A stretch of DNA of 64,000 nucleotides from an uncultured Eubacteriales bacterium (GTDB taxonomy: Bacteria > Bacillota > Clostridia > Christensenellales > Borkfalkiaceae): contig CATZMZ010000008.1 in NCBI GenBank assembly GCA_958421945.1, forward strand, positions 10,278 through 74,277, given 5' to 3'. Position numbers and translations under genes: made by a program. Below are positions 31,908 through 57,695 of this stretch, piece by piece; positions within the stretch are counted from its first letter, which is position 1; every line of letters begins with the position of its first letter. The notes under the pieces were generated by a model. It saw only the letters and a program-made list of their open reading frames with translations. It was not told the origin of the DNA and made no database searches.

Positions 31908-33185
31908 ATGGAACAACCTGCAATTTCAAGCGATTTAATTCGCGGTCATATTGATACGATTATATTGCACACTTTACTTGACGGAGATAAATATGCCCAA
32001 CAAATCAGTTTATCCGTCGAAGAAAAAAGCGAAAAAAAATACACCATAAATCAAGCGACGCTGTACAGTTCGTTAAAAAGACTTGAAAGCTTAAATTTTG
32101 TTAGCTCTTACTGGTTTGACGCGTCCGACGGAAGAAGAAAATTTTTTAAGATTACAGAAAAAGGCAAACAAGAAGTTAATAATAATTTATCGTCTTGGGC
32201 TTTTTCGCGTCAAATTATTGATAAACTTATGGATTATAGCGAGCCTGAATCTAAAAAAAGTAATTTTAACGCTGTTCCGATAGTTCAAAAAGTCGTTTTT
32301 GAAGCAAAAAACACCGATAAACCTCAGGTTTTTTCACAAACGCAAGCCGAAAAGCCCGTTACAACGAATTATAGCGATATAAAAACGAATTCTATCCGTC
32401 CTATTGAAGAAAAAACCGAAAAAACGGTTGAAAACACGGTTAACGTCAGGACTGAAACGTTAAAAAATACCGAAAACGACGAAAGAGAGATAAATTTTAG
32501 GACGATTTTGAGCGGACTAATAAAAACTTCCGTAATAACTACTCCCGAAATTGAAGAAAATGACAAACAAACCATTGATAGAATCGATAACTCCGAAGCT
32601 GAAAAGCCTAAGTTCAACGAAACTATAAATTTAACCGATTACGGAGTGCGTTCCTTTAAAAATAGCGGAAACATAGATTACAGCGACTTGACGCAAAATG
32701 CAGCACAAGAAGGTTATAAGTTGAAAATTTCCGCTATGGATTCGGCAAAACCTGTCGGAAACGTATATTGCAACAAGGTTGATTTCTTTTCCGCTTTGAC
32801 GTTGTTCGTGCTTGTTTTTTTTGAGGTTTTATTTGCAGCCGTTGGCTTTTATAAGGAAAATTTTAAATTATTAAATGCCTCTGCACCTATTATTGTTGCG
32901 GCAATAATCGTTTTAGTATTTGCAATTAAACTTATAAATAACCCGTTGAAAACCGATTATAAATCATTGAACTCTAATAGAATCGTTACGTCTTGCATTT
33001 TATCATTTAACCTTTTATTATTGACGTTGGTAATAAACTTTTTGGCGGGAACGGATTTTAATAATCCATATAACGTTATGTCATACATAATCTCACCCAT
33101 TATCGCCTTTACCGATATAGTGATTTTCTTTATCGTTCAATATTGTTTTTCCAAATCGAAAGCATTTATCGTTAAAAGAAAATAG
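31908..33185 (+). CDS. PadR-family winged-helix regulator fused to a low-complexity linker and a 4-TM C-terminal domain
   Basis: The N-terminus (LIRGHIDTIILHTLLDGDKYAQQISLSVEEKS...INQATLYSSLKRLESLNFVSSYW...GRRKFFKITEKGK) is PadR-like. Residues about 290-420 form four hydrophobic helices. Confidence 0.75.
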   Translation: MEQPAISSDLIRGHIDTIILHTLLDGDKYAQQISLSVEEKSEKKYTINQATLYSSLKRLESLNFVSSYWFDASDGRRKFFKITEKGKQEVNNNLSSWAFSRQIIDKLMDYSEPESKKSNFNAVPIVQKVVFEAKNTDKPQVFSQTQAEKPVTTNYSDIKTNSIRPIEEKTEKTVENTVNVRTETLKNTENDEREINFRTILSGLIKTSVITTPEIEENDKQTIDRIDNSEAEKPKFNETINLTDYGVRSFKNSGNIDYSDLTQNAAQEGYKLKISAMDSAKPVGNVYCNKVDFFSALTLFVLVFFEVLFAAVGFYKENFKLLNASAPIIVAAIIVLVFAIKLINNPLKTDYKSLNSNRIVTSCILSFNLLLLTLVINFLAGTDFNNPYNVMSYIISPIIAFTDIVIFFIVQYCFSKSKAFIVKRK

Positions 33186-45594: not shown

Positions 45595-46572
45595 TTACTG
45601 ATTTTTCAGCATATTTTCAATCGAAATGCCAAATCCCCTTGAGGGGTCGTTTATGAAAACGTGCGTAACCGCACCTACAAGCTTTCCGCCTTGCACAATC
45701 GGGCTTCCGCTCATCCCCTGAACTATCCCACCGGTTGAATCGAGCAATCGCTCGTCCGTTATTTTGATGACGTAATTTTTAATCGAATTAAGATCGTCGC
45801 ATTTTATTATTGAAATAGCATAATTTTGCGGTTCTTTCCCGTTAATCGTCGAATAAATTTCGGCATTCCCGGGTTTTGCTTCGCCCGTTACTATTTCGGT
45901 AAGCCCTTTGAATGCATTTTTCTTTATTTTACCGAACACTCCGAACTCGCAATTTTTTTCAATCTTTCCTTTTTCGTTTTTTCTTGTAAAAATGCCGCGT
46001 AACTCCCCCGGTTTTCCTCTTTCTCCTTTAACGTAACCCGTTATACTGCAATCGTAAACGCTGCCTTTTATTATTTTCAAAACGTTTCCGTCTTCATTTA
46101 ATACGGGGTGACCTAACGAAGCAAACGTCCCGTTTTTAATGTACGTTATCGTGCCGATTCCGTTGATTCCTTCTCTTATAAAAACGCCGAGTTTAAGTTT
46201 TCCGTTTATATCTTTTGCGGGTCTAACAGAGATTTTTTCGCTTTTTCCGTTACGTTCAATCGTTAATTCGATTTTGCTTTCTGATTTTAAGTTTTTCTCG
46301 ACGTCGTAAGCGTTATTCACTTCCCGACCATCTATTTCAAGTATCACGTCGCCCGATAAAACTCCCGAATCTTTGGACGGGGATTTTAAACCGTTTTCAG
46401 TGATAACGTCGCATAATCCGGCAACAAACGCACCTCTCGATTCCATAAAAAACCCGGCGGGCATCCCGCCGAGGTAAATTTTATCCTCGTCGGCATAAGC
46501 GACGAGATTTGTTCCCGAAACAAAAAAAAGCAGGGATAAGATTAAGAGAATAAATCGGTTAAGCTTTTTCAT
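45595..46572 (-). CDS. spoIVB: SpoIVB peptidase (S55) with a PDZ domain
   Basis: 325 aa with a signal/TM N-terminus, a PDZ region (GDVILEIDGREV) and the catalytic region ...GIVQGMSGSPIV...THVF.... Confidence 0.85.
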   Translation of the reverse strand: MKKLNRFILLILSLLFFVSGTNLVAYADEDKIYLGGMPAGFFMESRGAFVAGLCDVITENGLKSPSKDSGVLSGDVILEIDGREVNNAYDVEKNLKSESKIELTIERNGKSEKISVRPAKDINGKLKLGVFIREGINGIGTITYIKNGTFASLGHPVLNEDGNVLKIIKGSVYDCSITGYVKGERGKPGELRGIFTRKNEKGKIEKNCEFGVFGKIKKNAFKGLTEIVTGEAKPGNAEIYSTINGKEPQNYAISIIKCDDLNSIKNYVIKITDERLLDSTGGIVQGMSGSPIVQGGKLVGAVTHVFINDPSRGFGISIENMLKNQ

Positions 46573-46646: not shown

Positions 46647-47855
46647 TTACAGTCCGTATTCCTGTGCCAAAAGCTTAAATGACGGCAAAGAGTTTTTTAT
46701 CGTGTTTTCACTTACACAGTAAGCGATTCTGACGTACCCTTTTACACCGAAATCGTCGCACGGGACGAATAATATTTCGTGTTTTTTTGCGTTTTCATAA
46801 AATGAAAACGCATCTTTATCGGGACTTTTAACGAATAAATAAAACGCTCCGTCGGGTTTAACACAGTCGAAACCGTATTCGGTTAACGAACCGTACAGTA
46901 AGTCGCGATTTCTTTTATAGGCGCTTATATCGACTTTTGCGTTTACGCAATATTTAACCATTTGTTGGAAAAGCGACGGCGCGCAAACATAACCGAAAGA
47001 CCTGCCCGCGCCGCAAATGGCGCTGTAAACCTCGGTTCTACCCTCCATTTTAGGATTAACCGCAATATAACCTATTCTCTCGCCCGGCAAAGACAAAGAC
47101 TTTGAATAGGAATAGCAAACCAGACTGTTATTATAATAATTCATAACGTAAGGAACAAAAACGTTTTCGTAAACAAGCTCTCTATACGGCTCGTCCGAAA
47201 TAAGATAGATGATTTTTCCGTATTCGAGAGATTTCCTTTTAAGAATTTTGCACGCGGAAACAAGCGTTTCTTCTGTGTAGACAACGCCGCTCGGATTGTT
47301 CGGAGAGTTAATGATAACTGCTTTGGTATTTTCGGTTATTTTGCTCTCGAAATCCTCCATATCTATTTGAAAGGTTTTAGGATTCGGGTCAGAAACGACA
47401 ACTTTGCCGCCGGCGTTCTCGATAAAAACCCTGTATTCGGTAAAAAACGGTGCAAAAACAATACATTCCTCTCCGCGGTTAAGCAACGCGCCGAGCGAAA
47501 TAGTTAGCGAAGCGGCTGCTCCGCAAGTCATATAAATATCGTTTTCGTTCACGTTTACCGAAAAACTGTTTCTGATGTGCGCCGCAACGGCAGCTCTCGT
47601 TCCCGCGTCGCCCTGTGCGGACGTATATCCGTGCAAAGCCGTCGGCTCGTTTTCGTCAAGCAGCTTTTTAAGCGTTTCAGTAACTATTTCCGGCGGATTA
47701 ACGCTCGGATTGCCTATACTGAAATCATAGACGTTTTCTTTGCCGATTTCGGCTGCACGATTTTTGCTGTATTCAAAAATTTCTCTTATAATCGAACGTT
47801 TGCTTCCTAACCCGTAAGCCCTCTCGTTACATTGCATATTCTTTCTCCAAATCAA
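46647..47855 (-). CDS. Class I/II PLP-dependent aminotransferase (aspartate/aromatic type)
   Basis: 402 aa with ...NPSGVVY... and the PLP-lysine motif YSYSKSLSLPGERIGY. An alternative start (MQCNER, 47837) is possible. It is the last gene of the IOR operon. Confidence 0.85.
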   Translation of the reverse strand: MIWRKNMQCNERAYGLGSKRSIIREIFEYSKNRAAEIGKENVYDFSIGNPSVNPPEIVTETLKKLLDENEPTALHGYTSAQGDAGTRAAVAAHIRNSFSVNVNENDIYMTCGAAASLTISLGALLNRGEECIVFAPFFTEYRVFIENAGGKVVVSDPNPKTFQIDMEDFESKITENTKAVIINSPNNPSGVVYTEETLVSACKILKRKSLEYGKIIYLISDEPYRELVYENVFVPYVMNYYNNSLVCYSYSKSLSLPGERIGYIAVNPKMEGRTEVYSAICGAGRSFGYVCAPSLFQQMVKYCVNAKVDISAYKRNRDLLYGSLTEYGFDCVKPDGAFYLFVKSPDKDAFSFYENAKKHEILFVPCDDFGVKGYVRIAYCVSENTIKNSLPSFKLLAQEYGL

Positions 47856-48654
47856 GTATTTTTAATGCGTTTTTATACGTGATTTTATTAAAATCCTCTT
47901 CGTTTAATTTGTATGATTTTAAAATTTGCAAATCCTCTTTAATGCCGCGCCACGGGCAGTCCGTTGCAAATAAAACCTTTTCCGCGCCGTGACGCTCGAG
48001 AATTTTCTTGAAAACGCGTTCGTCGATTTCGTGAAAAGTAAAAGCGGTGTCAAAATAACAGTTATAATCGCAAAGCAGTTCGTATACTTCGTCCCACTGA
48101 TTATGACCGCCGTAATGCCCCAGCACGAGCTTTTCATATGGAAGTTTGTCCAAAACCTCTTTCGCAAGAACAGGCGGACATCTGACGGGCATACCTTTAT
48201 ACCCGTAATCCTCGCCCGCATGCGTAACTACGAGCATATCGTTATCTTTCGCAGCGGAAATAATACGTAAATATCCCTCGTCGTTAAAAAAAGTACTTTG
48301 ATAATCGGGATGAATTTTAACGCCTTTTATACCGTTCTCTCGCAAATATCGCATTTTACCGTCTATATCGTCGCAAGCCGGATGCATTCCGCCGAACGAA
48401 ATAAGTCTTTTGGAAGAATTCTTATATTGTTCATTTACGGCAATGGCAAAATGCGCGACGCTGTCGAATTGCGACGGCTTGGTTAAAACGGGCAAGGTAA
48501 CGCAAATATCTGCATTACCCCTTTCCATTTCTTTAATAAGCCCTTCGGCCGTTCCGTCGGTAAACGCGTGCGAATCGCTGTTGCTTTCAAGCTTTTCTAT
48601 CGTGGTTTTTGCTATTTTATCGGGAAAAATGTGTGTGTGAAAATCAATAAGCAT
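47827..48654 (-). CDS. Metal-dependent amidohydrolase-family (TIM-barrel) protein
   Basis: 275 aa with MLIDFHTHIFPD... and HxH plus downstream His/Asp ligands (THAGED, LGHYGG, FATDCPW). Confidence 0.7.
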   Translation of the reverse strand: MLIDFHTHIFPDKIAKTTIEKLESNSDSHAFTDGTAEGLIKEMERGNADICVTLPVLTKPSQFDSVAHFAIAVNEQYKNSSKRLISFGGMHPACDDIDGKMRYLRENGIKGVKIHPDYQSTFFNDEGYLRIISAAKDNDMLVVTHAGEDYGYKGMPVRCPPVLAKEVLDKLPYEKLVLGHYGGHNQWDEVYELLCDYNCYFDTAFTFHEIDERVFKKILERHGAEKVLFATDCPWRGIKEDLQILKSYKLNEEDFNKITYKNALKILDLEKEYAM

Positions 48655-48665
48655 ATAAAATTGAA

Positions 48666-49094
48666 TTAAAACTCCACAATCTCTTTGTTTGATAAGGTAG
48701 AAACACCGTTCTCAGCTAATATTGCGTCCGCTTTTTTAAGGTCGTCGGCTTTTAACACGATAGTCGCCTTTTCTCCCTCGACGGATAATCCGTACATATA
48801 CTCTACGTTAATATCCTTTGCTGAAAGGATTTCCAGAAGTTTTTGCAGACTGCCCGATTTATGGTCAATTCTTACAACCAAAATATCGGTAAGCATTGAC
48901 GAAAACCCGTTTTTGACGAGATTATCCGCAGCAAGCTTCGGGTCGCTGACGATAAGCCGAAGCAGTCCGAATTCCGTAGTATCGGCAAGCGAAAGAGAAA
49001 GAATATTTACACCGTTCTCTTTTAATACGCCGAGTACTTCGCCTAGTCTGCCCTGTCTGTTTTCGATAAACACCGATAACTGCTTTGATATCAT
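48666..49094 (-). CDS. ACT-domain (amino-acid-binding) protein
   Basis: 142 aa with two ACT-like beta-alpha-beta-beta-alpha-beta repeats (LSVFIENRQGRLGEVLGVLKENGVNI...). This is its usual position next to phenylacetate-CoA ligase genes. Confidence 0.75.
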   Translation of the reverse strand: MISKQLSVFIENRQGRLGEVLGVLKENGVNILSLSLADTTEFGLLRLIVSDPKLAADNLVKNGFSSMLTDILVVRIDHKSGSLQKLLEILSAKDINVEYMYGLSVEGEKATIVLKADDLKKADAILAENGVSTLSNKEIVEF

Positions 49095-49107: not shown

Positions 49108-50418
49108 TTATAGATTTTCCTGATAGATTTTTCTGTTATCAATAACGTGAACGGTTTTGCCGTCGTTGCGCATTAACGTTTGAGGTTCAACAAGCTTGAT
49201 TTTTGCATTTAAGCCCAGGCTTTGATTGATTTCGTGCGCAACCTTTCGAGTAAGCGACTCCAACCCCTTGATTTCATCGGAAAAATAAGAATCTTTAAGC
49301 TCGACCTGAATTTCAAGCGTATCGAGATTATTCACTCTGTCGACAATCATGAGGTAGTGCGGCGAAAGCTCTTTAATTTCAAGAAGCGCTGCTTCGACCT
49401 GACTCGGGAAAACGTTTACACCCCTTATAATAAGCATATCGTCCACCCTGCCTTTGAAACGGCTTATTCTTGCGCTTGTTCTGCCGCATTCGCAAACGGA
49501 TTTGTCAAGCGAAGTTAAGTCTTTCGTCCTGTACCGTATAAGCGGCAACCCCTCTTTCGTTAGTGTGGTAAACACAAGCTCGCCCGTAACCCCGTCCGGA
49601 ACAGACTTTAACGTTTCAGACGAAACAATTTCGGGATAGAAATGGTCCTCGCAAACGTGAAGTCCTTTATGAAAAGAACAATCGCACGCGACGCCCGGAC
49701 CCATAATTTCGGACAAACCGTAAATATCGTGCGCGGAAATGTGAAGCCGCTTTTCGATTTCAAGACGCATTTGTTCCGTCCACGGTTCTGCGCCGCAAAC
49801 AGCCGTTCTCAGTTTTAAGTCTTTGATTTTGTTTTCGGCTTCCAAAAGCTCGGCGATATGCAAAAGGTAAGAAGGCGTGCAGGCAATCGCGGTAACGTTA
49901 AAATCGAGCATCATCGTAATAAGTTTTTTAGAATTGCCCGTACTCATCGGAACAACCATCGCTCCTATTTTTTCCGCACCGTTATGCGCGCCGAGTCCGC
50001 CCGTAAACAAGCCGTATCCGTAGCCTATTTGAATAACGTCGTCTTTCGTTATGCCAGACATAGTGAAGCAACGTGCCACACATTCCGACCAGATATCAAG
50101 GTCATGTCTGGTATAACCAACTACCGTCGCTTTGCCCGTAGTCCCGCTTGACGCGTGAACTCTCACTATTTGGGATTTTGGAACGGCAAACAAACCGAAA
50201 GGATAATTATCGCGCAAGTCGTCCTTAGTTGTAAACGGCAACTTCTCGATATCCTCTATACCCTTTATATCGCAAGGCATAAGATCGAGAGCCTGCATTT
50301 TTTTGCGGTAATATTCTACGTTATGATAAACGTAATCGACAATCTTGACGAGCCGCGCGCTTTGAATAGCCGTCATTTCGTCGCGACTCATACATTCTTT
50401 ATTCTCATTCCAAATCAT
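49108..50418 (-). CDS. Phenylacetate--CoA ligase family (PaaK-like aryl-acid CoA ligase), copy 2
   Basis: 436 aa with ...HASSGTTGKATVVGYT..., ...YGLSEIMGPGVA..., and a C-terminal AMP-binding/ACT-like domain. It is a paralogue of 52743-54041. Confidence 0.88.
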   Translation of the reverse strand: MIWNENKECMSRDEMTAIQSARLVKIVDYVYHNVEYYRKKMQALDLMPCDIKGIEDIEKLPFTTKDDLRDNYPFGLFAVPKSQIVRVHASSGTTGKATVVGYTRHDLDIWSECVARCFTMSGITKDDVIQIGYGYGLFTGGLGAHNGAEKIGAMVVPMSTGNSKKLITMMLDFNVTAIACTPSYLLHIAELLEAENKIKDLKLRTAVCGAEPWTEQMRLEIEKRLHISAHDIYGLSEIMGPGVACDCSFHKGLHVCEDHFYPEIVSSETLKSVPDGVTGELVFTTLTKEGLPLIRYRTKDLTSLDKSVCECGRTSARISRFKGRVDDMLIIRGVNVFPSQVEAALLEIKELSPHYLMIVDRVNNLDTLEIQVELKDSYFSDEIKGLESLTRKVAHEINQSLGLNAKIKLVEPQTLMRNDGKTVHVIDNRKIYQENL

Positions 50419-50420
50419 AA

Positions 50421-50996
50421 TTATTCCTCCTGCTCGTAACCAAGCTTGAATGCTTTAACGTTAATATCTATAGTTTTGGACGGTACGGTTTTTTCAAGAA
50501 CGCTTAACCATTGTTCCTCGGAAAAATCGAGAAATTTCGCAGCAAACCCAAGAACGACCGAATTGAGAACTTTGGGGTTGCCGAGTTTTTCGGCAATTTC
50601 AACACCGTTTATAGTATGTACGGTGTGGTTTTGTTTTAAGCGCGGTAATATGCCCTCGGGATATGCTTCTGCGCCCGTTACGACGGTCATCGGATCGATT
50701 CTGCAATCGTTTACCACTATTAAACCGTCTTTTTTAAGGAAATGAGCGTATCTTAACGCCTCTAACCTTTCAAACGAAATAAGAATATCCGCGTCGCCGA
50801 CCTCAACCACCGGTTCGTCCACCTTTTCGCCGAAACGAACGAAAGTAACGACGCTTCCGCCGCGTTGAGCCATTCCGTGAACCTCGGAAAGCTTTACGTC
50901 GAAGTTTTGGGAAAGCGCGACGTTTCCTATAATTCTGCTTGTCAAAAGCGTTCCTTGACCGCCAACGCCGACTACCATAATATTTAAGTTTTTCAT
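50421..50996 (-). CDS. iorB: Indolepyruvate:ferredoxin oxidoreductase beta subunit
   Basis: 191 aa with VVGVGGQGTLLTSRIIG...HGMAQRGGSV, typical of the IorB/gamma-type subunit. Confidence 0.88.
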   Translation of the reverse strand: MKNLNIMVVGVGGQGTLLTSRIIGNVALSQNFDVKLSEVHGMAQRGGSVVTFVRFGEKVDEPVVEVGDADILISFERLEALRYAHFLKKDGLIVVNDCRIDPMTVVTGAEAYPEGILPRLKQNHTVHTINGVEIAEKLGNPKVLNSVVLGFAAKFLDFSEEQWLSVLEKTVPSKTIDINVKAFKLGYEQEE

Positions 50997-51000
50997 ATTC

Positions 51001-52740
51001 TTATTTCTCCCGTTTTTCGATAGCCCCGAATTTGCAATAGCTTTGACAAAGTCCGCAACCGTTACACATTGAGCGGTCGATTTTAATTGTCCCCGATTCG
51101 GTTTTAGTAATTGCGGGACATCCTATTTTTAAGCACATTCCGCATTTTTTGCATTTTTCGGGAATTTCCACGCATTTATAAGGGAATTTTTGACCTTTAA
51201 GCAAAGCGCAGGGCGCACGTGCTATTATTACGGTCAGCTCGTCCGAATTAACGCTTTCTTTAATGATTTTTTCAAGCTCAACCACGTTAAACGCGTCCGC
51301 CTCTATAACTCTCGGAACGCCGATTGCAGAACATAACGTTTTAAAATCAATCGCGTAAGTCGCTTCGCCTTTAAGCGTCTTGCCCGTTGCGGCGTGATCT
51401 TGATGACCCGTCATACCGGTCGTTCTATTGTCAAGAATAATTACTGTGCCGCACGATTTATTATAAACCATGTTAACGAGCGAATTTATACCCGTATGTA
51501 AAAAGGTTGAATCTCCGATAACCGCTACGCGATTTTTAATAAAGTCTTTGCCTTTTGCTTTTTCCATACCGTGAAGAACGGAAATGCTTGCACCCATACA
51601 AACCGTGGTATCGATTACCGACAGCGGTGCAACCGCCCCCAAAGTATAACAGCCTATATCTCCCGCCGCGTGAATTTTAAGTTTATTAAGCACCGAAAAA
51701 ACGCTTCTGTGCGGACAACCCGGGCATAAAATGGGCGGACGATTAGGAGCTTTTTCCTTTTCGAAAACTTTATCGTCCTTACCGAAAATTGCCTTTCTTA
51801 TTAAATTTGCGCTGTATTCGCCCTGCTTCGTGAAAAGCTCCTTCCCTTTAACGTTTAATCCCCACGAACGGACCTGCTCCTCGATAACGGGTTCTAATTC
51901 CTCGACGATATATACCGTTTCGACGTTATCGACGAACTCTTTTATAAGTCTTTCGGGAAGCGGGTTAACCATACCGAGTTTTAACACGCTTGCTTGCGGC
52001 GCAGCCTCCTTAACGTATTGATAAGGAATACCTGACGTAATAAAACCTATTTTTCTATCGTTATACTCTATTATATTTATAGGAAAATCAGAACAATCCG
52101 CCGCCATACGATTTTCCCTGTCCTCAACGAAGAGGTGTCTGCCGATAGCCGACCCCGGCATCATGACGTATTTTTTAACGTCCCTTTCGCAAGGTTTATC
52201 CTCAGGAACGACTCTTTCGGAAAGCTCAACAGCACTTTGCGAATGGGAAAGCTTTGTCGTCGTTCTTAAAATAACGGGCGTATCGTATTTTTCGCTCAAT
52301 TCGAAAGCGATTTTAACAAAATTTTTCGCTTCTTCGCTGTCGGACGGTTCTAAAACGGGAATGTGCGCGCTTCTTGCAATCATACGCGTATCCTGTTCGT
52401 TTTGCGAACTCGCAAGGCCCGGGTCGTCGGCAACGACGATAACCGAGCCACCGTTCACGCCCGTGTAAGCGAACGTGTAAACGGGGTCGCTTGCAACGTT
52501 AAGACCTACGTGTTTCATACAACAAAGGCTTCTGACGCCTGCGTAACACGCACCGATTGCAACCTCAGCCGCAACTTTTTCGTTAGGCGCCCATTCGGTA
52601 TAAACCTCCGGATATTTAGCGAGGAATTCGCTTATTTCGGTTGACGGTGTTCCCGGATACGCGCTTGAAACCTTAACGCCGGCTTCGTATGCACCTCTTG
52701 CTATTGCTTCGTTTCCGAGCATCAATTTTTTTTCGTTCAT
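51001..52740 (-). CDS. iorA: Indolepyruvate:ferredoxin oxidoreductase alpha subunit (TPP plus 2x[4Fe-4S])
   Basis: 579 aa with the TPP-binding motif GDSTFLHTG and C-terminal ferredoxin motifs CKKCGMCLKIGCP and CNGCGLCQSYC. Confidence 0.9.
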   Translation of the reverse strand: MNEKKLMLGNEAIARGAYEAGVKVSSAYPGTPSTEISEFLAKYPEVYTEWAPNEKVAAEVAIGACYAGVRSLCCMKHVGLNVASDPVYTFAYTGVNGGSVIVVADDPGLASSQNEQDTRMIARSAHIPVLEPSDSEEAKNFVKIAFELSEKYDTPVILRTTTKLSHSQSAVELSERVVPEDKPCERDVKKYVMMPGSAIGRHLFVEDRENRMAADCSDFPINIIEYNDRKIGFITSGIPYQYVKEAAPQASVLKLGMVNPLPERLIKEFVDNVETVYIVEELEPVIEEQVRSWGLNVKGKELFTKQGEYSANLIRKAIFGKDDKVFEKEKAPNRPPILCPGCPHRSVFSVLNKLKIHAAGDIGCYTLGAVAPLSVIDTTVCMGASISVLHGMEKAKGKDFIKNRVAVIGDSTFLHTGINSLVNMVYNKSCGTVIILDNRTTGMTGHQDHAATGKTLKGEATYAIDFKTLCSAIGVPRVIEADAFNVVELEKIIKESVNSDELTVIIARAPCALLKGQKFPYKCVEIPEKCKKCGMCLKIGCPAITKTESGTIKIDRSMCNGCGLCQSYCKFGAIEKREK

Positions 52741-52742
52741 AA

Positions 52743-54041
52743 TTAAAATTTCCTTAAATCTTTTATTCTTTTTGCTTTCCCTTCGAAGCGTTGAAGGGTG
52801 TTGGGCGATTCAAGCAGAACCTTCGCGTCAAGCCCTAAAATCACGTGGAGTTTTGCACGGATAGCCTTGTTAAGTGAATCAAGTTCCGCATAGGAATCGG
52901 TAGACTTTAAGAGTTCTACCCTAATCGTCAGCTTATCGGAATAACCTTCTCTTTCGATGATTATTTCGTAGTGCGGACCAAGCTCTTTAAACGCAAGAAT
53001 AACCTCCTCGATTTGCCCGGGGAAAACGTTTACGCCGCGAACTTTAAGCATATCGTCGCTTCTGCCCGAAAGATTTTCCATTCTCGCTAAGGTTCTGCCG
53101 CATTTACACGGCTCATAGGTTAAGCGCGTAATATCCTTCGTTCTGTAACGGATAAGCGGAATTCCCTCTTTTTTTATGCAAGTAATAACTAGTTCGCCCT
53201 TTTCGCCCTCGGGTAAAACCTCGCCCGTTTCGGGATTGATAATTTCGGGGATAAAATAGTCCTCGTTGATGTGCATGCCGCAAAGCTGTTCGCACTCGCC
53301 CGAAACGCCCGGACCTAAAAGTTCGCTCATGCCGTAGTTGGAAGTAATAAGCATATCGTCACCCCAGTACTTGTGAGCTTCCGCACGCATTGCATCGGTA
53401 AGCAGTTCGCTGCCGAACAAACCGATTTTAACTTTTAAATCCTTTGCGGGGTCGATACCCGATTCTCTCGCGACCTCGGCAAGCCTTAAAGCGTAAGAAG
53501 GCGTGGCAACCAAAAGCGTCGTACCGAAATCCTGCATATACATTATTTGCTTTTCGGAATTACCCGTAGATGAAGGAATAATCGTTGCGCCGATATTTTC
53601 AAGCCCATAATGAAGCCCCAAAGCACCCGTAAACATTCCGTAACCGAAGCAAATCTGCGCGATATCCTTGTCGGTCGCGCCACCCATACAAGCTATACGA
53701 GAAACGCATTCAGTCCACATTTTCATATCGTTGCGAGTGTAACCTACGACGGTAGGTTTGCCCGTCGTGCCGCTCGACGCGTGTATGCGGACGAGTTCGG
53801 TTTTCGGTACGGCAAACATTCCGAACGGGTAAGTATCCCTCATATCCTTTTTAGTAACGAAAGGCAATCTGCTTAAATCTTTTAAAGATTTTATGTCCTC
53901 AGGCTTAACGCCGGCTTCGTCCATTTTTGTGCGGTAAGGCGCAACCTTATCGTAAACTCTGTGTACGGTCTCTTTAAGCCGGGTAAGCTGTATTTCCTCT
54001 ATCTCCTTTCTCGAAAGGGTTTCTTCTCTTGACCAAATCAT
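52743..54041 (-). CDS. Phenylacetate--CoA ligase family (PaaK-like aryl-acid CoA ligase), copy 1
   Basis: 432 aa with ...HASSGTTGKPTVVGYT... and ...YGMSELLGPGVS.... Confidence 0.88.
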   Translation of the reverse strand: MIWSREETLSRKEIEEIQLTRLKETVHRVYDKVAPYRTKMDEAGVKPEDIKSLKDLSRLPFVTKKDMRDTYPFGMFAVPKTELVRIHASSGTTGKPTVVGYTRNDMKMWTECVSRIACMGGATDKDIAQICFGYGMFTGALGLHYGLENIGATIIPSSTGNSEKQIMYMQDFGTTLLVATPSYALRLAEVARESGIDPAKDLKVKIGLFGSELLTDAMRAEAHKYWGDDMLITSNYGMSELLGPGVSGECEQLCGMHINEDYFIPEIINPETGEVLPEGEKGELVITCIKKEGIPLIRYRTKDITRLTYEPCKCGRTLARMENLSGRSDDMLKVRGVNVFPGQIEEVILAFKELGPHYEIIIEREGYSDKLTIRVELLKSTDSYAELDSLNKAIRAKLHVILGLDAKVLLESPNTLQRFEGKAKRIKDLRKF

Positions 54042-54068
54042 AAGACTTCTCCTATTTATATTGTACCA

Positions 54069-55610
54069 CTATTTTATTTCGTTTTCAATCGTTTTATCGA
54101 AAGCTTCCGATATTATTTTCTCATCGGGTGCTTTGGTAAACAAGCTGACCGTAAAAGTTACGATTACGGAGAATACTATACAAATTATGCCGACCGTAGG
54201 CGAGCAGCCTATTCCGCTTTTTAACGCCGTGCCGAACGAGCATGAAAAACCATTAATATCGTAGCCGAAAATCATCGTAAGCGCAACAGTCAGCACGAGC
54301 GATCCGATAATCGAACACCATACGGCGGGCTTTGTGATTTTTTTAGAAATAAGTCCCAAAACGAACGGACCGGTAAAGCAACCGGAAAGCGTCCCCCACG
54401 ATAATCCCATAAGGTATGCTATTGCGGAAATATGAAATTTTTCGTTAAGCATCGCGAGCGTAAGCGATATTGCGATAAATACGAGGCATAAAATACGCAT
54501 AAGAGAGTTTACATTTTTATCGGGCGCGTCTTTTTTTATCGAACCCTTATACAGGTCGACCGCAACGACAGACGCGCTTGTAAGTGATACCGACGAAAGC
54601 GTGGACATACTTGCGGAAAGTATCAAAACGGCGATAATACCCATAAGCCCCGCAGGAATAACTATTTTAAGCATTTGAGGCACGATATTGTCCGCAGCAA
54701 CGCCACTGACCTCGGGGAAAAGCCCGGATAAGCTTCCCACGAAATACGCGCCGAAACCGATAATCAACGCAAACAAAGTACTGACGACCGTCCCTTGCGT
54801 AATAGCCTTTTTATCGCGAACGGCGTAGTATTTATGTACCGTTTGCGGAAGTCCGTAAACGCCGACGGACGTGAGCAAAATCAAAGAAATAAGCGAAACC
54901 GTGCTGCCATAAAAACCTTTATCCGATGAATTAAACGTAAACCAGGTTTTATTCGGGTCGTTGATAAGCTCGGAAAGATTCCAGCTTACCTGCTCGCTGT
55001 TCAAAAAACAAAAAACCATTAGGAACACACCGACGAGCATTATTATGCCCTGAATAAAATCTGACAACGCAGTCGCGAAATATCCGCCGAAAAACAAATA
55101 CAACGCGGTGATTATCGCAAGCGCAATCATGATAATCCAACTCTTAATCCCAAAAACGATTTCAAAAAGGCTCGATAATCCGTTATAAACGGAAGCCGAA
55201 TACGGAATCAGAAACACGAAAATTATGACGGCGGAAACGATTTTAAGAGTTTTATCGCCGTATCTTTTTTCAAAAAATTCCGGCATCGTCTTCGCTTGCA
55301 GCCGTTGAGTCATGTTTTTAGTTCGCTTTGCCATCAACAACCAGGCGAAAAGCGAACCTAAAATCGCGTTCCCGATGCCTATCCATACGGAAGCAAGACC
55401 GTACTGCGCTCCGAATTTACCAGCGTATCCTATAAAGATTACCGCGGAAAAATATGTCGTGCCATAAGCAAAAGCAGTCATCCAACCGTTAAGCCCCTTT
55501 TTGCCCGCAAGCAAAAAATCGTTTACGGATTTAGAGCGGTTACGCGTGTAAACCGCAATTAAAACCATGCTTACAGCGTAAAGAATAAGTATCAGGTAAT
55601 CCCAAAACAT
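54069..55610 (-). CDS. Sodium:solute symporter family (SSF) transporter
   Basis: 513 aa with about 13 TM helices and the SSF N-terminal signature (...SVNDFLLAGKKGLNGWMTAFAYGTTYFSAV...). AGGAGG lies 8 nt upstream. It is the first gene of the 8-gene operon. Confidence 0.85.
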   Translation of the reverse strand: MFWDYLILILYAVSMVLIAVYTRNRSKSVNDFLLAGKKGLNGWMTAFAYGTTYFSAVIFIGYAGKFGAQYGLASVWIGIGNAILGSLFAWLLMAKRTKNMTQRLQAKTMPEFFEKRYGDKTLKIVSAVIIFVFLIPYSASVYNGLSSLFEIVFGIKSWIIMIALAIITALYLFFGGYFATALSDFIQGIIMLVGVFLMVFCFLNSEQVSWNLSELINDPNKTWFTFNSSDKGFYGSTVSLISLILLTSVGVYGLPQTVHKYYAVRDKKAITQGTVVSTLFALIIGFGAYFVGSLSGLFPEVSGVAADNIVPQMLKIVIPAGLMGIIAVLILSASMSTLSSVSLTSASVVAVDLYKGSIKKDAPDKNVNSLMRILCLVFIAISLTLAMLNEKFHISAIAYLMGLSWGTLSGCFTGPFVLGLISKKITKPAVWCSIIGSLVLTVALTMIFGYDINGFSCSFGTALKSGIGCSPTVGIICIVFSVIVTFTVSLFTKAPDEKIISEAFDKTIENEIK

Positions 55611-55624
55611 AAGTTAAGCCTCCT

Positions 55625-55655
55625 AAAAACAAAAAACCGCCCTTCACAGGCGGTC
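55625..55655 (-). terminator. Intrinsic terminator (attenuator) immediately upstream of the symporter SD
   Basis: Minus strand GACCGCC-tgtgaag-GGCGGTT followed by TTTTGTTTTT. It ends 5-10 nt before AGGAGG of the symporter gene. Confidence 0.75.
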
Positions 55656-55702
55656 AAAACTCTCGTATATAATACAAAAAAAACTAATTAAAACCGCACA
55701 TA

Positions 55703-55777
55703 CTAAAATTGAAACGATTCAAAATAATAGTTTCCAAAATAATAATATGCGTAATAGTAAGAAGTGTTTTTTTTCAT
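55703..55777 (-). CDS. Leader peptide MKKNTSYYYAYYYFGNYYFESFQF (24 aa; 8 Tyr, 4 Phe)
   Basis: ATG at 55777 is preceded by AAGGA (6-nt spacing), and the stop TAG is at 55703-55705. The ORF sits between a consensus promoter and the attenuator terminator. It is too short to appear in the ORF track. Confidence 0.6.
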   Translation of the reverse strand: MKKNTSYYYAYYYFGNYYFESFQF

Positions 55778-55800
55778 AACTTTTCCTTATTTACCGAATT

Positions 55801-55829
55801 ATTATACCATTAAAAGCGTATAGTGTCAA
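55801..55829 (-). promoter_or_regulatory. Consensus extended -10 sigma-A promoter of the leader and IOR operon
   Basis: Minus strand TTGACA (55824-55829), 17 nt, then TGgTATAAT (hexamer at 55801-55806). Confidence 0.7.
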
Positions 55830-55880
55830 ATATTATCGTATAAAAAAACAAAAAACAACATTATTTTCGATAGATAATTA

Positions 55881-55916
55881 CAAACGAAAAGGCGAAACGT
55901 TTTTCGCTTCGCCTTG
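55881..55916 (-). terminator. Intrinsic terminator of the eda-kdgK unit
   Basis: Minus strand AAGGCGAAGCG-aaaaa-CGTTTCGCCTT followed by TTCGTTTG. Confidence 0.6.
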
Positions 55917-56072
55917 GTTTTTAATAGCACCGTTTATATCCGGACTTATTTATCAATATTTTTTCGCTTTTTTATTTCGCTTAAGTATAACGTTTAGTTA
56001 TTTCTAATATATTTAAGCTAAACGTTTCGACAACGAATGCCTCGACGTAAAAAGGTTTTTAACTTCCGTGGT

Positions 56073-57092
56073 TTACCTTTGAACTCTTCCGCTCGCATCG
56101 CCGCCCGCGAGAGTTTCAACCTCTTTAACGCTCATCATATTATAATCGCCCTCTACGGAATGTTTTAAGCAACTAGCGGCAATGGCGAACTCAATCGCCT
56201 TTTGCGGTTCGTAACCGTTAGCAAGCGAATAAATAAGACCGCCGCCAAAAGAATCTCCCCCGCCGACCCTGTCGACGATATGCATGGCGTATTTTTTGGA
56301 GAAATACGCAGTGTTACCCGTGTAAAGCATTCCCGACCAGTTATTATCGTTGGCGGAAAGACTTTCGCGCAGAGTAATGGCAACGCCCTTAAATCCGAAT
56401 CTCTCCGTAAGTTTTTTAGCAACCGAAATATATCCGTTCTTGTCAAGCTTGCCGCTCGTAATATCGGTATTATCCGCCTCGATGCCGAAAACGTCCTTCG
56501 CATCCTCTTCGTTAGCGATGCAATAATCGACGTAAGACATAAGCTCGCCCATAACCTTACCCGCTTTTTCTTTGCTCCAAAGCTTCTTTCTGAAATTAAG
56601 GTCGCAGGAAACGGTTATCGCACGTTCTTTGCAGGCTTTAAGCGCGTCGAGAGTAATAGCAGCAACCTCGTCCGAAAGTGCCGGCGTGATACCTGTAAAG
56701 TGAAACCAGTTAACGCCGTCTAAAATACCCGACCATTCAAAATCGGTTTTTTCGGCGCACGCAATCGAACTGCCCGCCCTGTCGTAAATAACCTTGCTGG
56801 GGCGTTGGCTTGCACCTTTTTCGCAGTAATAAATACCGACCCTTGCTCCGCCTCTGACGATTTTGCTCGTATCGACGCCGAATTTTCTTAACGAATTAAC
56901 AGCCGCCTGACCTATTTCGTGTTCGGGAAGTTTGCTGACGAATGCCGCGTCCATTCCGTAATTTGCAAGCGAAACGGCAACGTTCGCTTCCGCGCCGCCG
57001 AAGGTTGCTTCGAGCTTATCGCTCTGCACGAATCTTAAATATCCTTCGGGAGCAAGTCTTAACATCAATTCGCCAAAAGTAACAATTTTCAT
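56073..57092 (-). CDS. kdgK: 2-dehydro-3-deoxygluconokinase (PfkB family)
   Basis: 339 aa with the PfkB motifs FGGAEANVAV and VDRVGGGDSFGGGLIY. It is adjacent to eda. Confidence 0.85.
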   Translation of the reverse strand: MKIVTFGELMLRLAPEGYLRFVQSDKLEATFGGAEANVAVSLANYGMDAAFVSKLPEHEIGQAAVNSLRKFGVDTSKIVRGGARVGIYYCEKGASQRPSKVIYDRAGSSIACAEKTDFEWSGILDGVNWFHFTGITPALSDEVAAITLDALKACKERAITVSCDLNFRKKLWSKEKAGKVMGELMSYVDYCIANEEDAKDVFGIEADNTDITSGKLDKNGYISVAKKLTERFGFKGVAITLRESLSANDNNWSGMLYTGNTAYFSKKYAMHIVDRVGGGDSFGGGLIYSLANGYEPQKAIEFAIAASCLKHSVEGDYNMMSVKEVETLAGGDASGRVQR

Positions 57093-57110
57093 AATTTTCT
57101 CCTTAACACG

Positions 57111-57695
57111 TTAAGCCTGTAAAGAAGCTATAACTTCGTTTATTTTTTTGCAATTTTCCGTAATATCGCCTTTCATCATAAAACTTCCGCCGACCGCGTA
57201 AATCTTATCGAACGACAAGAATTCCGCTAGATTAGTCAAATCTACCCCGCCGGTGGGTATAAACTTTAACTGCGGGAACGGTCCTGACAACGCTTTAAGT
57301 GCTTTAAGTCCGCCGTAAACGTTTGCGGGGAAAAACTTAACTACGTCGATGCCGAGCTCTAAAGCCTGCATAATCTCCGTCGGGGTTACACACCCGGGGT
57401 AATACGGAACACCGATTTCCTGTGCAAATTTCGCAACGTCTGAGGAAAGCCCCGGTGAAACGAGAAATTTCGCGCCGGCTGCAACAGCTTTTTGCGCCTG
57501 AGCCAAATTGATAACCGTACCCGCACCGATATTCATCTCGGGAAACTCCTTAACGCCGAGAGCAATAGCTTCTGCGGCGCACGCCGTGCGGAACGTTATT
57601 TCCGCGCAATTAATGCCGCCGTTTTTTAACGCTTCGAGCGTCGGGATTGTGTCTTTAACGTCTTTGATAACAACTACGGGTATAATTCTATCCAT
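57111..57695 (-). CDS. eda: 2-dehydro-3-deoxyphosphogluconate / 4-hydroxy-2-oxoglutarate aldolase
   Basis: 194 aa with ...IPVVVIKD...GGINCAEITFRT...GAGTV...FLVSPG...KFFPA..., typical of KDPG aldolase. Confidence 0.85.
   Translation of the reverse strand: MDRIIPVVVIKDVKDTIPTLEALKNGGINCAEITFRTACAAEAIALGVKEFPEMNIGAGTVINLAQAQKAVAAGAKFLVSPGLSSDVAKFAQEIGVPYYPGCVTPTEIMQALELGIDVVKFFPANVYGGLKALKALSGPFPQLKFIPTGGVDLTNLAEFLSFDKIYAVGGSFMMKGDITENCKKINEVIASLQA

Follow-up and report, generated by a model that had tools for sequence, protein, structure and literature searches.

A Tyr- and Phe-codon-rich leader with the features of a ribosome-mediated attenuator precedes an arylacetate-CoA ligase and indolepyruvate:ferredoxin oxidoreductase operon in gut Clostridia

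The DNA analysed here (the window) is a stretch of 64,000 nucleotides from contig CATZMZ010000008.1 of an uncultured Eubacteriales bacterium of the Borkfalkiaceae (assembly GCA_958421945.1). On its minus strand, a short leader precedes a sodium:solute symporter gene, the first of an operon that also encodes arylacetate-CoA ligases and an indolepyruvate:ferredoxin oxidoreductase (IOR). The original prediction, made from the sequence alone, proposed that this leader is a ribosome-mediated attenuator composed of a consensus promoter, a Shine-Dalgarno (SD) sequence, a 24-codon open reading frame (ORF) dominated by Tyr and Phe codons, an octamer, a terminator and, directly afterwards, the AGGAGG and ATG of the symporter. 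Direct reading of the sequence placed each of these elements where it had been reported, and the leader can be laid out as follows:

55801-55829, minus strand: promoter of the sigma-70 type with an extended -10, TTGACA-17 nt-TGgTATAAT (-35 at 55829-55824)
55784-55788, minus strand: SD of the leader ORF, AAGGA, 6 nt 5' of the ATG, read directly from the sequence
55703-55777, minus strand: leader peptide ORF including its stop codon (ATG at 55777, TAG at 55705-55703), encoding MKKNTSYYYAYYYFGNYYFESFQF
55744-55752, minus strand: candidate for region 1, ACGCAUAUU, within codons 9-12 (Y-A-Y-Y) and able to pair with region 2
55690-55702, minus strand: region 2, UAUGUGCGGUUUU, holding the GCGGUUUU box; putative 5' strand of the antiterminator and partner of region 1
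55648-55655, minus strand: region 3, the 5' arm of the terminator, GACCGCCU, common to the putative antiterminator and the terminator
55625-55642, minus strand: region 4, the 3' arm of the terminator, GGGCGGUU, with its U tract, UUUUGUUUUU
55619-55624, minus strand: SD of the symporter, AGGAGG, read directly from the sequence

The promoter matches the consensus at 12 of 12 positions, carries the extended TG and is the top promoter match within 54000-57500. The PfkB-family gene lying upstream (57092-56073) possesses its own terminator at 55915-55889, and the leader therefore constitutes a separate transcription unit. Eight of the 24 codons specify Tyr and four Phe, with no Trp codon. The octamer GCGGTTTT (55697-55690, minus strand) begins 5 nt 3' of the leader stop codon and is followed by the terminator hairpin GACCGCCT / GTGAA / GGGCGGTT (55655-55635, minus strand), by TTTTGTTTTT at 55634-55625 and, at 55610 on the same strand, by the ATG of the symporter. 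Of the 322 ATG-initiated ORFs, 12-45 codons long, that the two strands of the window contain, the leader ORF ranks first both for its aromatic fraction (0.50; runner-up 0.38) and for its Tyr fraction (0.33; runner-up 0.19). When 55611-55800 was shuffled 20,000 times with its dinucleotides preserved, a single shuffle produced an ATG-initiated ORF with 8 or more Tyr codons, and ORFs with 12 or more aromatic residues appeared 83 times. The leader ORF is thus not an artefact of composition.

A permissive Rfam scan of 55000-56500 (E up to 10) returned no leader-peptide family (Phe_leader, Leu/phe, His, Thr, Trp or Leu); the matches were noise (CRISPR-DR, S774, RAGATH-22 and L20_leader), all far under their gathering scores. 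The L20_leader match, for instance, scored 15.4 bits, where the gathering score is 58.7, and is situated upstream of the leader promoter. Over the whole window, a scan at the gathering threshold retrieved tRNAs alone, and neither the Rfam scans nor a regular expression for the T-box core detected a T-box at the leader locus.

We compared the window with 80 loci drawn from the 542 relatives found in a GTDB scan (designated here by numbers with the prefix L). The 450-600 nt 5' of each orthologous symporter gene were scanned for frames dense in aromatic codons and for terminators, and the matches were then read. A screen retaining the best ORF per locus had missed several leaders, which were recovered by scanning aromatic density frame by frame together with the terminators. 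About 20 loci share one layout, namely a promoter, an SD and ATG, a short Tyr/Phe-rich ORF, a GCGGTT-type box, a terminator of the form (A)ACCGCC / GGCGGT(T) with a U tract, and the SD of the symporter. These are L001/L081, L005, L006, L010, L032, L038, L043, L046, L066, L072, L085, L090, L091, L161, L163, L164, L165/L166, L167 and L168, with L028 as a distal member, and their symporters are 68-87% identical in amino acids to that of the window. Promoters resembling the one in the window precede the leader ORF in L001, L028, L038, L043, L066, L072, L090, L161, L163, L165 and L168. All 17 full-length homologous leaders start with ATG and, by inspection, most of the full-length leader ORFs are preceded by SD-like purine runs. 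The peptides that they encode are:

L161: MINLHAYYYAYYYFRNYYYDTFQF, alignable with that of the window
L163: MQKFNSYYCAYYYFGNYYYNTFQF, alignable with that of the window
L168: MLNQKHAFYYGYYYFGNYYYNRFLF
L167: ...LYFGYYYFGNYYFYNEFLC, on a contig truncated at its 5' end
L085: MKAYNNAYYGYYYFRNYYYN
L066: MSIFAIEYYCEYYYFRNYYFN
L001 / L081: MFAYFYYYEYYLNFNTIPI
L164: MFAYFYYYEYYLNFRTNPI
L038: MKLDARFNFYYAYYFYYYFE
L043: MKLRFNYYKIAYYYWA
L032: MLYFTAYYFEFFYYRLENE
L165 / L166: MFSKFYYREYYFFKNCRL
L091: MTNFYRNYQYFYYFFK
L090: MLFTKNVYYFYYYFS
L006: ...FYYRNYYFYFI, truncated
L072: MKTYLTKTKREYYFSV
L005: MRKFALFNRFYRYFFGGYLSISGRSGKYSRFLF

Pooled, 20 leader peptides contain 122 Tyr, 65 Phe and a single Trp among 396 residues, that is, 47% aromatic residues (31% Tyr, 16% Phe). 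They are 15-33 residues long, their sequences diverge and their N-termini cannot be aligned; even between the window and its closest relatives, L161 and L163, the first five codons are wholly different. The aromatic core is nonetheless retained through synonymous TAC/TAT changes and through F/Y swaps (TTT with TAC or TAT), so that the expected persistence of the Tyr/Phe runs amid drift of the other codons was indeed observed. An aromatic core kept while the remainder diverges is what one would expect if selection preserved which amino acids the regulatory codons specify and not the peptide product. Conservation of the aromatic ORF, the box and the terminator in about 20 orthologous loci thus lends support to the attenuator reading.

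Two members of the family are irregular. In L028, the leader MTAKKYFYYYYYFAMGCSSFVRSER (L028:4738-5079) lies about 250 nt 5' of the symporter with its own long-loop terminator, after which a second consensus-like promoter is found (ttgact...tatgatataat); this arrangement may represent a decaying or re-wired attenuator, and the locus was left out of the structure statistics. L010 is an ambiguous member: its first 330 nt (L010:1-330) contain a Tyr-rich frame (...RYFGYYYEYRNF*) lacking a clear start codon, and an overlapping frame that ends abruptly resembles, by eye, the N-terminus of a response regulator (MNIAIVDDEKAELD...LVILDI). The leader of L010 may therefore be a rearrangement or an assembly chimera.

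Whole-leader alignment with MAFFT (A1) aligned too poorly for structural analysis and was replaced by an alignment of the interval from box to terminator (A2) and by a model-guided realignment (A3). Over the 20 sequences of A3 the terminator helix covaries, none of 500 shuffles reaching the observed score. The box keeps its column register in both A2 and A3. In the window, it can form 6 pairs with GACCGC of the terminator 5' arm, and a box/5'-arm pairing is available in 19 of 20 leaders, with RNAduplex energies of -6.8 to -13.5 kcal/mol. When this pairing (2:3) was compared with 1,000 shuffles of each spacer, the p values of individual loci ranged from 0.002 to 0.2 and combined by Fisher's method to p=2.7e-15 over 19 leaders. 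The proposal that the octamer serves as a candidate antiterminator is thereby strengthened, its complementarity to the 5' arm exceeding that of shuffled controls. In the A3 columns, pairing in the antiterminator helix reaches 82.5%, whereas sliding the partner out of register lowers it to 28-66%. Where the terminator departs from the family consensus, the box can be seen to follow it: CCGTC / GACGG of L010 is mirrored by the box ACGGTTTT (ACGG), CCAAA / TTTGG of L090 by TTTGGCG, and CACG / GTGTGG of L091 by GTGTGCGG. In L038 the box/arm pairing is extended by ACTT / AAGT outside the terminator, and L010, L043 and L072 use a shifted antiterminator register. A covariance model of the box and terminator (R1), built from A2 and searched in 1.4 Mb of loci together with the window, matched only at the position 5' of the symporter and added one new member, L046.

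A further complementarity, which did not form part of the original prediction, involves the codons that interrupt the Tyr runs. The non-aromatic residue within these runs is specified by GC-rich codons, such as GCA (Y-A-Y), CGC (Y-R-N), TGC-GCA or ACC-GCC, and most members consequently carry among their Tyr codons a GC island able to base-pair with the region of the box. The corresponding 1:2 duplex of the window joins ACGCAUAUU (55752-55744) to UAUGUGCGG at -8.9 kcal/mol. Over 19 leaders the 1:2 pairing yields a Fisher p of 2.4e-9; it is strong in L032, L006, L165, L163, L090 and L085, and weak in L001 and L164. With region 1 resembling region 3 and region 2 resembling region 4, the predicted four-region layout is that of a classical attenuator.

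Folding was then considered with and without the last of these regions. With region 4 withheld and folding started from the stop codon, 18 of 19 leaders have most of region 3 paired to sequence lying upstream (window, -11.9 kcal/mol), its partner being the box or the upstream sequence adjacent to it. When the position of a ribosome was masked in the window, a stall on any of the 12 aromatic codons left the 2:3 pairing predicted, and a ribosome at the stop codon removed it. The box is located 3-6 nt after the stop codon in nine leaders (the window and 8 others), a distance at which the proposed masking by a ribosome at the stop would be feasible.

On these grounds we consider it likely that the element is a ribosome-mediated leader-peptide transcription attenuator sensing the charging of tRNA-Tyr and, secondarily, of tRNA-Phe, and that it most likely turns on an operon for the uptake and conversion of aryl acids upon shortage of Tyr or Phe. 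Transcription would begin at the consensus promoter, and a ribosome would translate the 24-codon leader. With Tyr-tRNA or Phe-tRNA scarce, it would stall within the Tyr/Phe runs, which overlap region 1 (ACGCAUAUU), leaving region 2 (UGUGCGGUUUU) free to pair with region 3 (GACCGCC) once the latter is made; this 2:3 structure would block the 3:4 terminator and RNA polymerase would enter the operon. With charged tRNAs plentiful, the ribosome would reach the stop codon and cover region 2, lying 5 nt downstream, or would alternatively be released, allowing 1:2 to refold; 3:4 would then form, giving a terminated leader transcript of about 165-170 nt. Promoter, ORF, box, their conservation, the complementarities and the gene content are observed features; that the leader is translated, that ribosomes stall on it and that the decision is made kinetically are what we infer from them.

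Several observations weigh against this reading and set limits on it. Taken singly, the pairings are weak (2:3 in the window alone, p=0.06; 1:2 in the window, p=0.12, and in L001, p=0.57), and the Fisher values overstate their significance, since related loci were treated as independent. A column-based test of the antiterminator helix on A3 revealed no compensatory covariation, the GCGG/CCGC core being invariant; the case for the antiterminator accordingly depends on conserved complementarity together with the register-shifted matches. The expected competition between 2:3 and 3:4 was borne out insofar as region 3 pairs upstream when region 4 is withheld, but once region 4 is included the terminator state has the lower energy in every case (window, -17.3 kcal/mol). 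As the terminator is favoured at equilibrium, the antiterminator could compete kinetically only, and the switch must be a kinetic one. Likewise, masking by a ribosome at the stop codon suits the window but not about half of the family, in which the box is too far downstream: it begins 8-23 nt after the stop in nine leaders and lies inside the ORF in L005. At 8-23 nt a terminating ribosome cannot mask the box, and termination in these members would have to proceed through ribosome release with 1:2 refolding, or through kinetics. Minimum-free-energy folding with a masked ribosome is correspondingly mixed across the family, several members forming 2:3 without any ribosome or with one at the stop codon, and these are members whose box is 12-23 nt downstream of the stop. 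Given this mixed folding and a terminator that wins at equilibrium, thermodynamics alone is not claimed as proof of the switch. Finally, the element is lineage-restricted and present in a minority of the orthologous operons; most of them have a plain promoter about 45 nt from the start codon and no terminator, and in L162, whose symporter is 80% identical to that of the window, the gene stands directly behind pfkB without a leader.

The same features could be read in other ways. An RNA-binding protein, perhaps activated by an amino acid, might recognise the UAU/UAC triplets and act on the terminator much as TRAP or PyrR does, in which case the ORF would be incidental. The leader does contain contiguous UAU/UAC triplets, a terminator with an alternative structure would suit a protein-mediated switch equally, and nearly every one of these operons encodes an ACT-domain-pair protein, one candidate for such a role. 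The ACT protein is, however, encoded also by operons that have no leader, and the triplets follow no fixed number, spacing or register. Swaps between Tyr and Phe codons (TAT/TAC with TTT) preserve the class of the amino acid and not the RNA triplet motif, and inspection finds an in-frame ATG, with a stop before or at the box, in nearly all full-length leaders, most of them with an SD. We accordingly hold control by a triplet-binding protein to be very unlikely. A third possibility, that the whole arrangement is inert, the terminator being constitutive, leaky or a remnant and the Tyr-rich ORF a by-product of AT-rich, TA-repeat sequence without a regulatory role, has in its favour that TAT and TTT codons are common in AT-rich regions, that ORFs with at least 12 aromatic residues appear in 0.4% of the shuffles and that most orthologous operons do without the element. 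Chance of this kind is hard to reconcile with at least 8 Tyr codons in 1 of 20,000 shuffles, with a layout repeated in about 20 divergent loci, where the frame is invariably the sense one and opens with an ATG, and with a conserved box complementary to the terminator arm; we find the explanation barely credible.

The sign of the regulation could also be the reverse, if the nascent peptide acted as an arrest sensor in the manner of TnaC and free Tyr or Phe, or an arylacetate, induced, at times of abundant substrate, a catabolic operon leading from amino acid to arylacetate. What argues here against an arrest peptide is that such peptides need fixed, conserved residues, and composition alone is conserved in leaders whose length varies between 15 and 33 residues. 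Moreover, a ribosome arrested on the stop codon would mask the box and promote terminator formation, the opposite of what induction requires. IOR is classically assigned the oxidative direction, aminotransferases are reversible and SSF transporters include amino-acid carriers such as PutP, all of which would accommodate catabolism; the AMP-forming ligases, on the other hand, favour formation of the CoA ester (PMC13285125), and the Tyr T-boxes found on distant homologues (see below) point to induction by uncharged tRNA-Tyr. An arrest sensor thus appears highly improbable, and we return to the attenuator responding to tRNA charging.

The mechanism itself is already known; what is new is the specificity for Tyr and then Phe, the pathway regulated and the lineage. 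In common with the pheL (pheA) and pheM (pheST) leaders of E. coli, the leader described here combines a short ORF carrying runs of aromatic codons with 1:2, 2:3 and 3:4 hairpins that are predicted to exclude one another, a stop codon that in the window lies near region 2, and an intrinsic terminator just before the first structural gene (PMC3082878). It differs from them in being dominated by Tyr (31% Tyr against 16% Phe), in its clostridial host, in the absence of sequence or Rfam similarity, and in its target, which comprises transport, arylacetate-CoA ligase, IOR and aminotransferase rather than the prephenate pathway or a tRNA synthetase. In trpL of E. coli, the terminator (about -20 kcal/mol) is likewise more stable than the antiterminator (about -12 kcal/mol) and the decision is kinetic; the corresponding values here are -17.3 and -11.9. 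Unlike trpL, with its two adjacent Trp codons, the present leader has many Tyr/Phe codons spread along it and in this respect is nearer to the his or pheA leaders.

The Leu/Phe leader of Lactococcus, an Rfam family, is another leader-peptide attenuator of Gram-positive bacteria. The view that such attenuators are unusual in Firmicutes holds, in that they are rare there, though with precedent in the His leader located 5' of hisS/hisZ paralogues in bacilli (PMC2965389); in Acholeplasma, aroF is preceded by a Phe uORF, uORFC-13-1 (PMC8632094). As in these Firmicutes and Tenericutes cases, ribosome-mediated attenuation would here take the place of the T-box-type regulation that usually governs amino-acid supply genes in Gram-positive lineages; the present element is set apart by its specificity (Tyr, then Phe), its target operon, its host (uncultured gut Clostridia) and the lack of an Rfam family. 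A Tyr T-box would have the same input, charging of tRNA-Tyr, and the same output, read-through of a terminator, but it is a structured RNA of about 220 nt that binds uncharged tRNA, whereas here the sensor would be a ribosome translating a 24-codon ORF. Our literature search on Tyr leader peptides and on reductive carboxylation of phenylacetate retrieved no prior account of the element, of a Tyr-rich leader or of attenuation acting on this operon, its incomplete coverage making this weak evidence of absence. To our knowledge, this would be the first Tyr-specific leader-peptide attenuator.

T-boxes are in fact found upstream of two distant homologues of the symporter, both 42-45% identical to that of the window. 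That of L160 (2156-2405) scores 113 bits, above the gathering score, and that of L152 (583-848) scores 87 bits (E=2.6e-19), just under the gathering score of 93. Both display a specifier loop, GAA-UAC, that is probably a Tyr (UAC) specifier, the register being less certain in L152, where a gene for a 546-aa AMP-binding CoA ligase comes after that of the symporter. A module of symporter and ligase would thus be under the control of tRNA-Tyr charging by two unrelated mechanisms. Switches between sensing systems have been described by Naville and Gautheret, and the exchange of leader peptide and T-box on this module matches them (PMC2965389). Among the orthologues without a leader, the T-box core expression gave no match, L152 and L160 being the only, and distant, exceptions.

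Other sequences conserved upstream of symporter homologues were also noticed. The leader-less loci L004, L012, L018, L031 and L034 share a block about 130 nt 5' of the symporter, aaattgcaaaaa[a/g]caccatattcatcttgatatgg...tgtg[t/g]tata[t/g]t, which may be a transcription-factor site replacing the attenuator. In the last 70 nt or so before the start of distant homologues (42-48% identity; L105, L106, L114, L119, L126, L129, L131-L133, L136, L138, L141-L150, L153, L154 and L157-L159), an A-rich motif combines AAAGC repeats with small palindromes resembling TTTAAAGC...GCTTTAAA (for example 'taaaagcataaaagcgttaaagcgttaaag') and looks like a different conserved cis-regulatory element.

The operon downstream of the leader comprises the following genes:

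54069-55610, minus strand: sodium:solute symporter of the SSF family, the first gene (PF00474; below every NCBIfam equivalog cutoff)
52743-54041, minus strand: PaaK-like AMP-forming arylacetate-CoA ligase 1 (TIGR02155, 499.7 bits, under the equivalog cutoff of 646)
51001-52740, minus strand: indolepyruvate:ferredoxin oxidoreductase IorA (above the NCBIfam equivalog cutoff)
50421-50996, minus strand: indolepyruvate:ferredoxin oxidoreductase IorB (above the NCBIfam equivalog cutoff)
49108-50418, minus strand: PaaK-like arylacetate-CoA ligase 2
48666-49094, minus strand: ACT-domain-pair protein (PF19571)
47827-48654, minus strand: Amidohydrolase_2 family protein
46647-47837, minus strand: class I/II aminotransferase (PF00155, E=5.7e-49)

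The ATG of the aminotransferase gene overlaps the stop codon of the amidohydrolase gene, and the aminotransferase gene probably closes the operon. At 46453-46473 (minus strand), inside the called 5' end of an ORF for a SpoIVB peptidase (46572-45595), there is a strong hairpin of the terminator type (CTCGGCGGGATGCCCGCCGGG followed by a T run). It is probably the terminator of the operon ending with the aminotransferase, in which case the start of SpoIVB lies further downstream.

When the 80 orthologous loci were searched with tblastn, the order symporter-PaaK-IorA-IorB-PaaK-ACT-amidohydrolase was recovered in most of those of sufficient length and a shorter symporter-PaaK-ACT form in about a dozen, the symporter coming first in nearly all. 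The loci come from uncultured Clostridia of the gut, sampled in humans, ruminants and birds and labelled as Clostridia, Clostridiales, Christensenella/Christensenellaceae, Acutalibacteraceae, Candidatus Scatosoma or Oscillospiraceae. Thousands of close homologues of the symporter exist, and its relatives include monocarboxylate carriers such as ActP.

Induction upon shortage of Tyr- or Phe-tRNA fits a role in amino-acid supply and not in degradation, which suggests that the operon makes Tyr and Phe rather than degrading them. IOR has been proposed or shown to run as a reductive carboxylation in methanogens. For Bacteroides, it has been argued that an IOR colocalised with an AMP-forming arylacetate-CoA ligase may serve the biosynthesis of aromatic amino acids (PMC13285125, 2026). 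We lean, with modest confidence, towards an operon that salvages arylacetates (4-hydroxyphenylacetate and phenylacetate) to Tyr and Phe, in which case the substrate would be taken up by the SSF symporter, activated to its CoA ester at the expense of ATP by the two PaaK-like ligases, reductively carboxylated by IOR and finally transaminated. What counts against this salvage route is that we infer both the substrate of the symporter, an arylacetate, and the direction of the pathway from the context described, and that the aminotransferase was seen in the window alone, because the compared loci end before that position.

Should the attenuator be induced by scarcity of Tyr- and Phe-tRNA, it would supply an independent argument for the biosynthetic direction of clusters of IOR and arylacetate-CoA ligase. 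Together with the Tyr T-boxes, it would mark an operon widespread in gut Clostridia as a starvation-induced, anabolic system of arylacetate salvage, a conclusion towards which the balance tips slightly. Whether IOR clusters with an AMP-forming arylacetate-CoA ligase make or consume phenylacetate and 4-hydroxyphenylacetate is a question raised for Bacteroides (PMC13285125). If the salvage reading is true, the bacteria considered here would consume, and not produce, the arylacetates that feed metabolites of relevance to the host, such as phenylacetylglutamine and p-cresol. A specialist in RNA regulation would not be greatly surprised by the element; its value resides in the testable handle that it offers on the direction of IOR and PaaK in gut Clostridia. 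It would also add a Tyr-dominated attenuator to a class whose textbook examples come largely from Proteobacteria, few cases being described in Firmicutes, where T-boxes are usual. It provides, too, a clean example of exchange between sensing systems among related transporters, in which distant homologues carry a T-box where this operon has a leader peptide and most orthologues make do with a plain promoter. ORF callers miss such leaders, which R1 or a simple pattern could annotate.

At the opposite end of the window, six tRNA genes (Pro, Met, Asp, Phe, Thr and Tyr) lie together at 712-1327 on the minus strand; the tRNA-Tyr(GTA) and tRNA-Phe(GAA) among them would read the regulatory codons of the leader. 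The GC skew is positive over 1-32,000 and negative over 32,000-64,000, with a cumulative peak near 32 kb, and most of the genes examined beyond the midpoint of the window lie on the minus strand. The vicinity of position 32000 may thus be a replication terminus or a point of strand switching.

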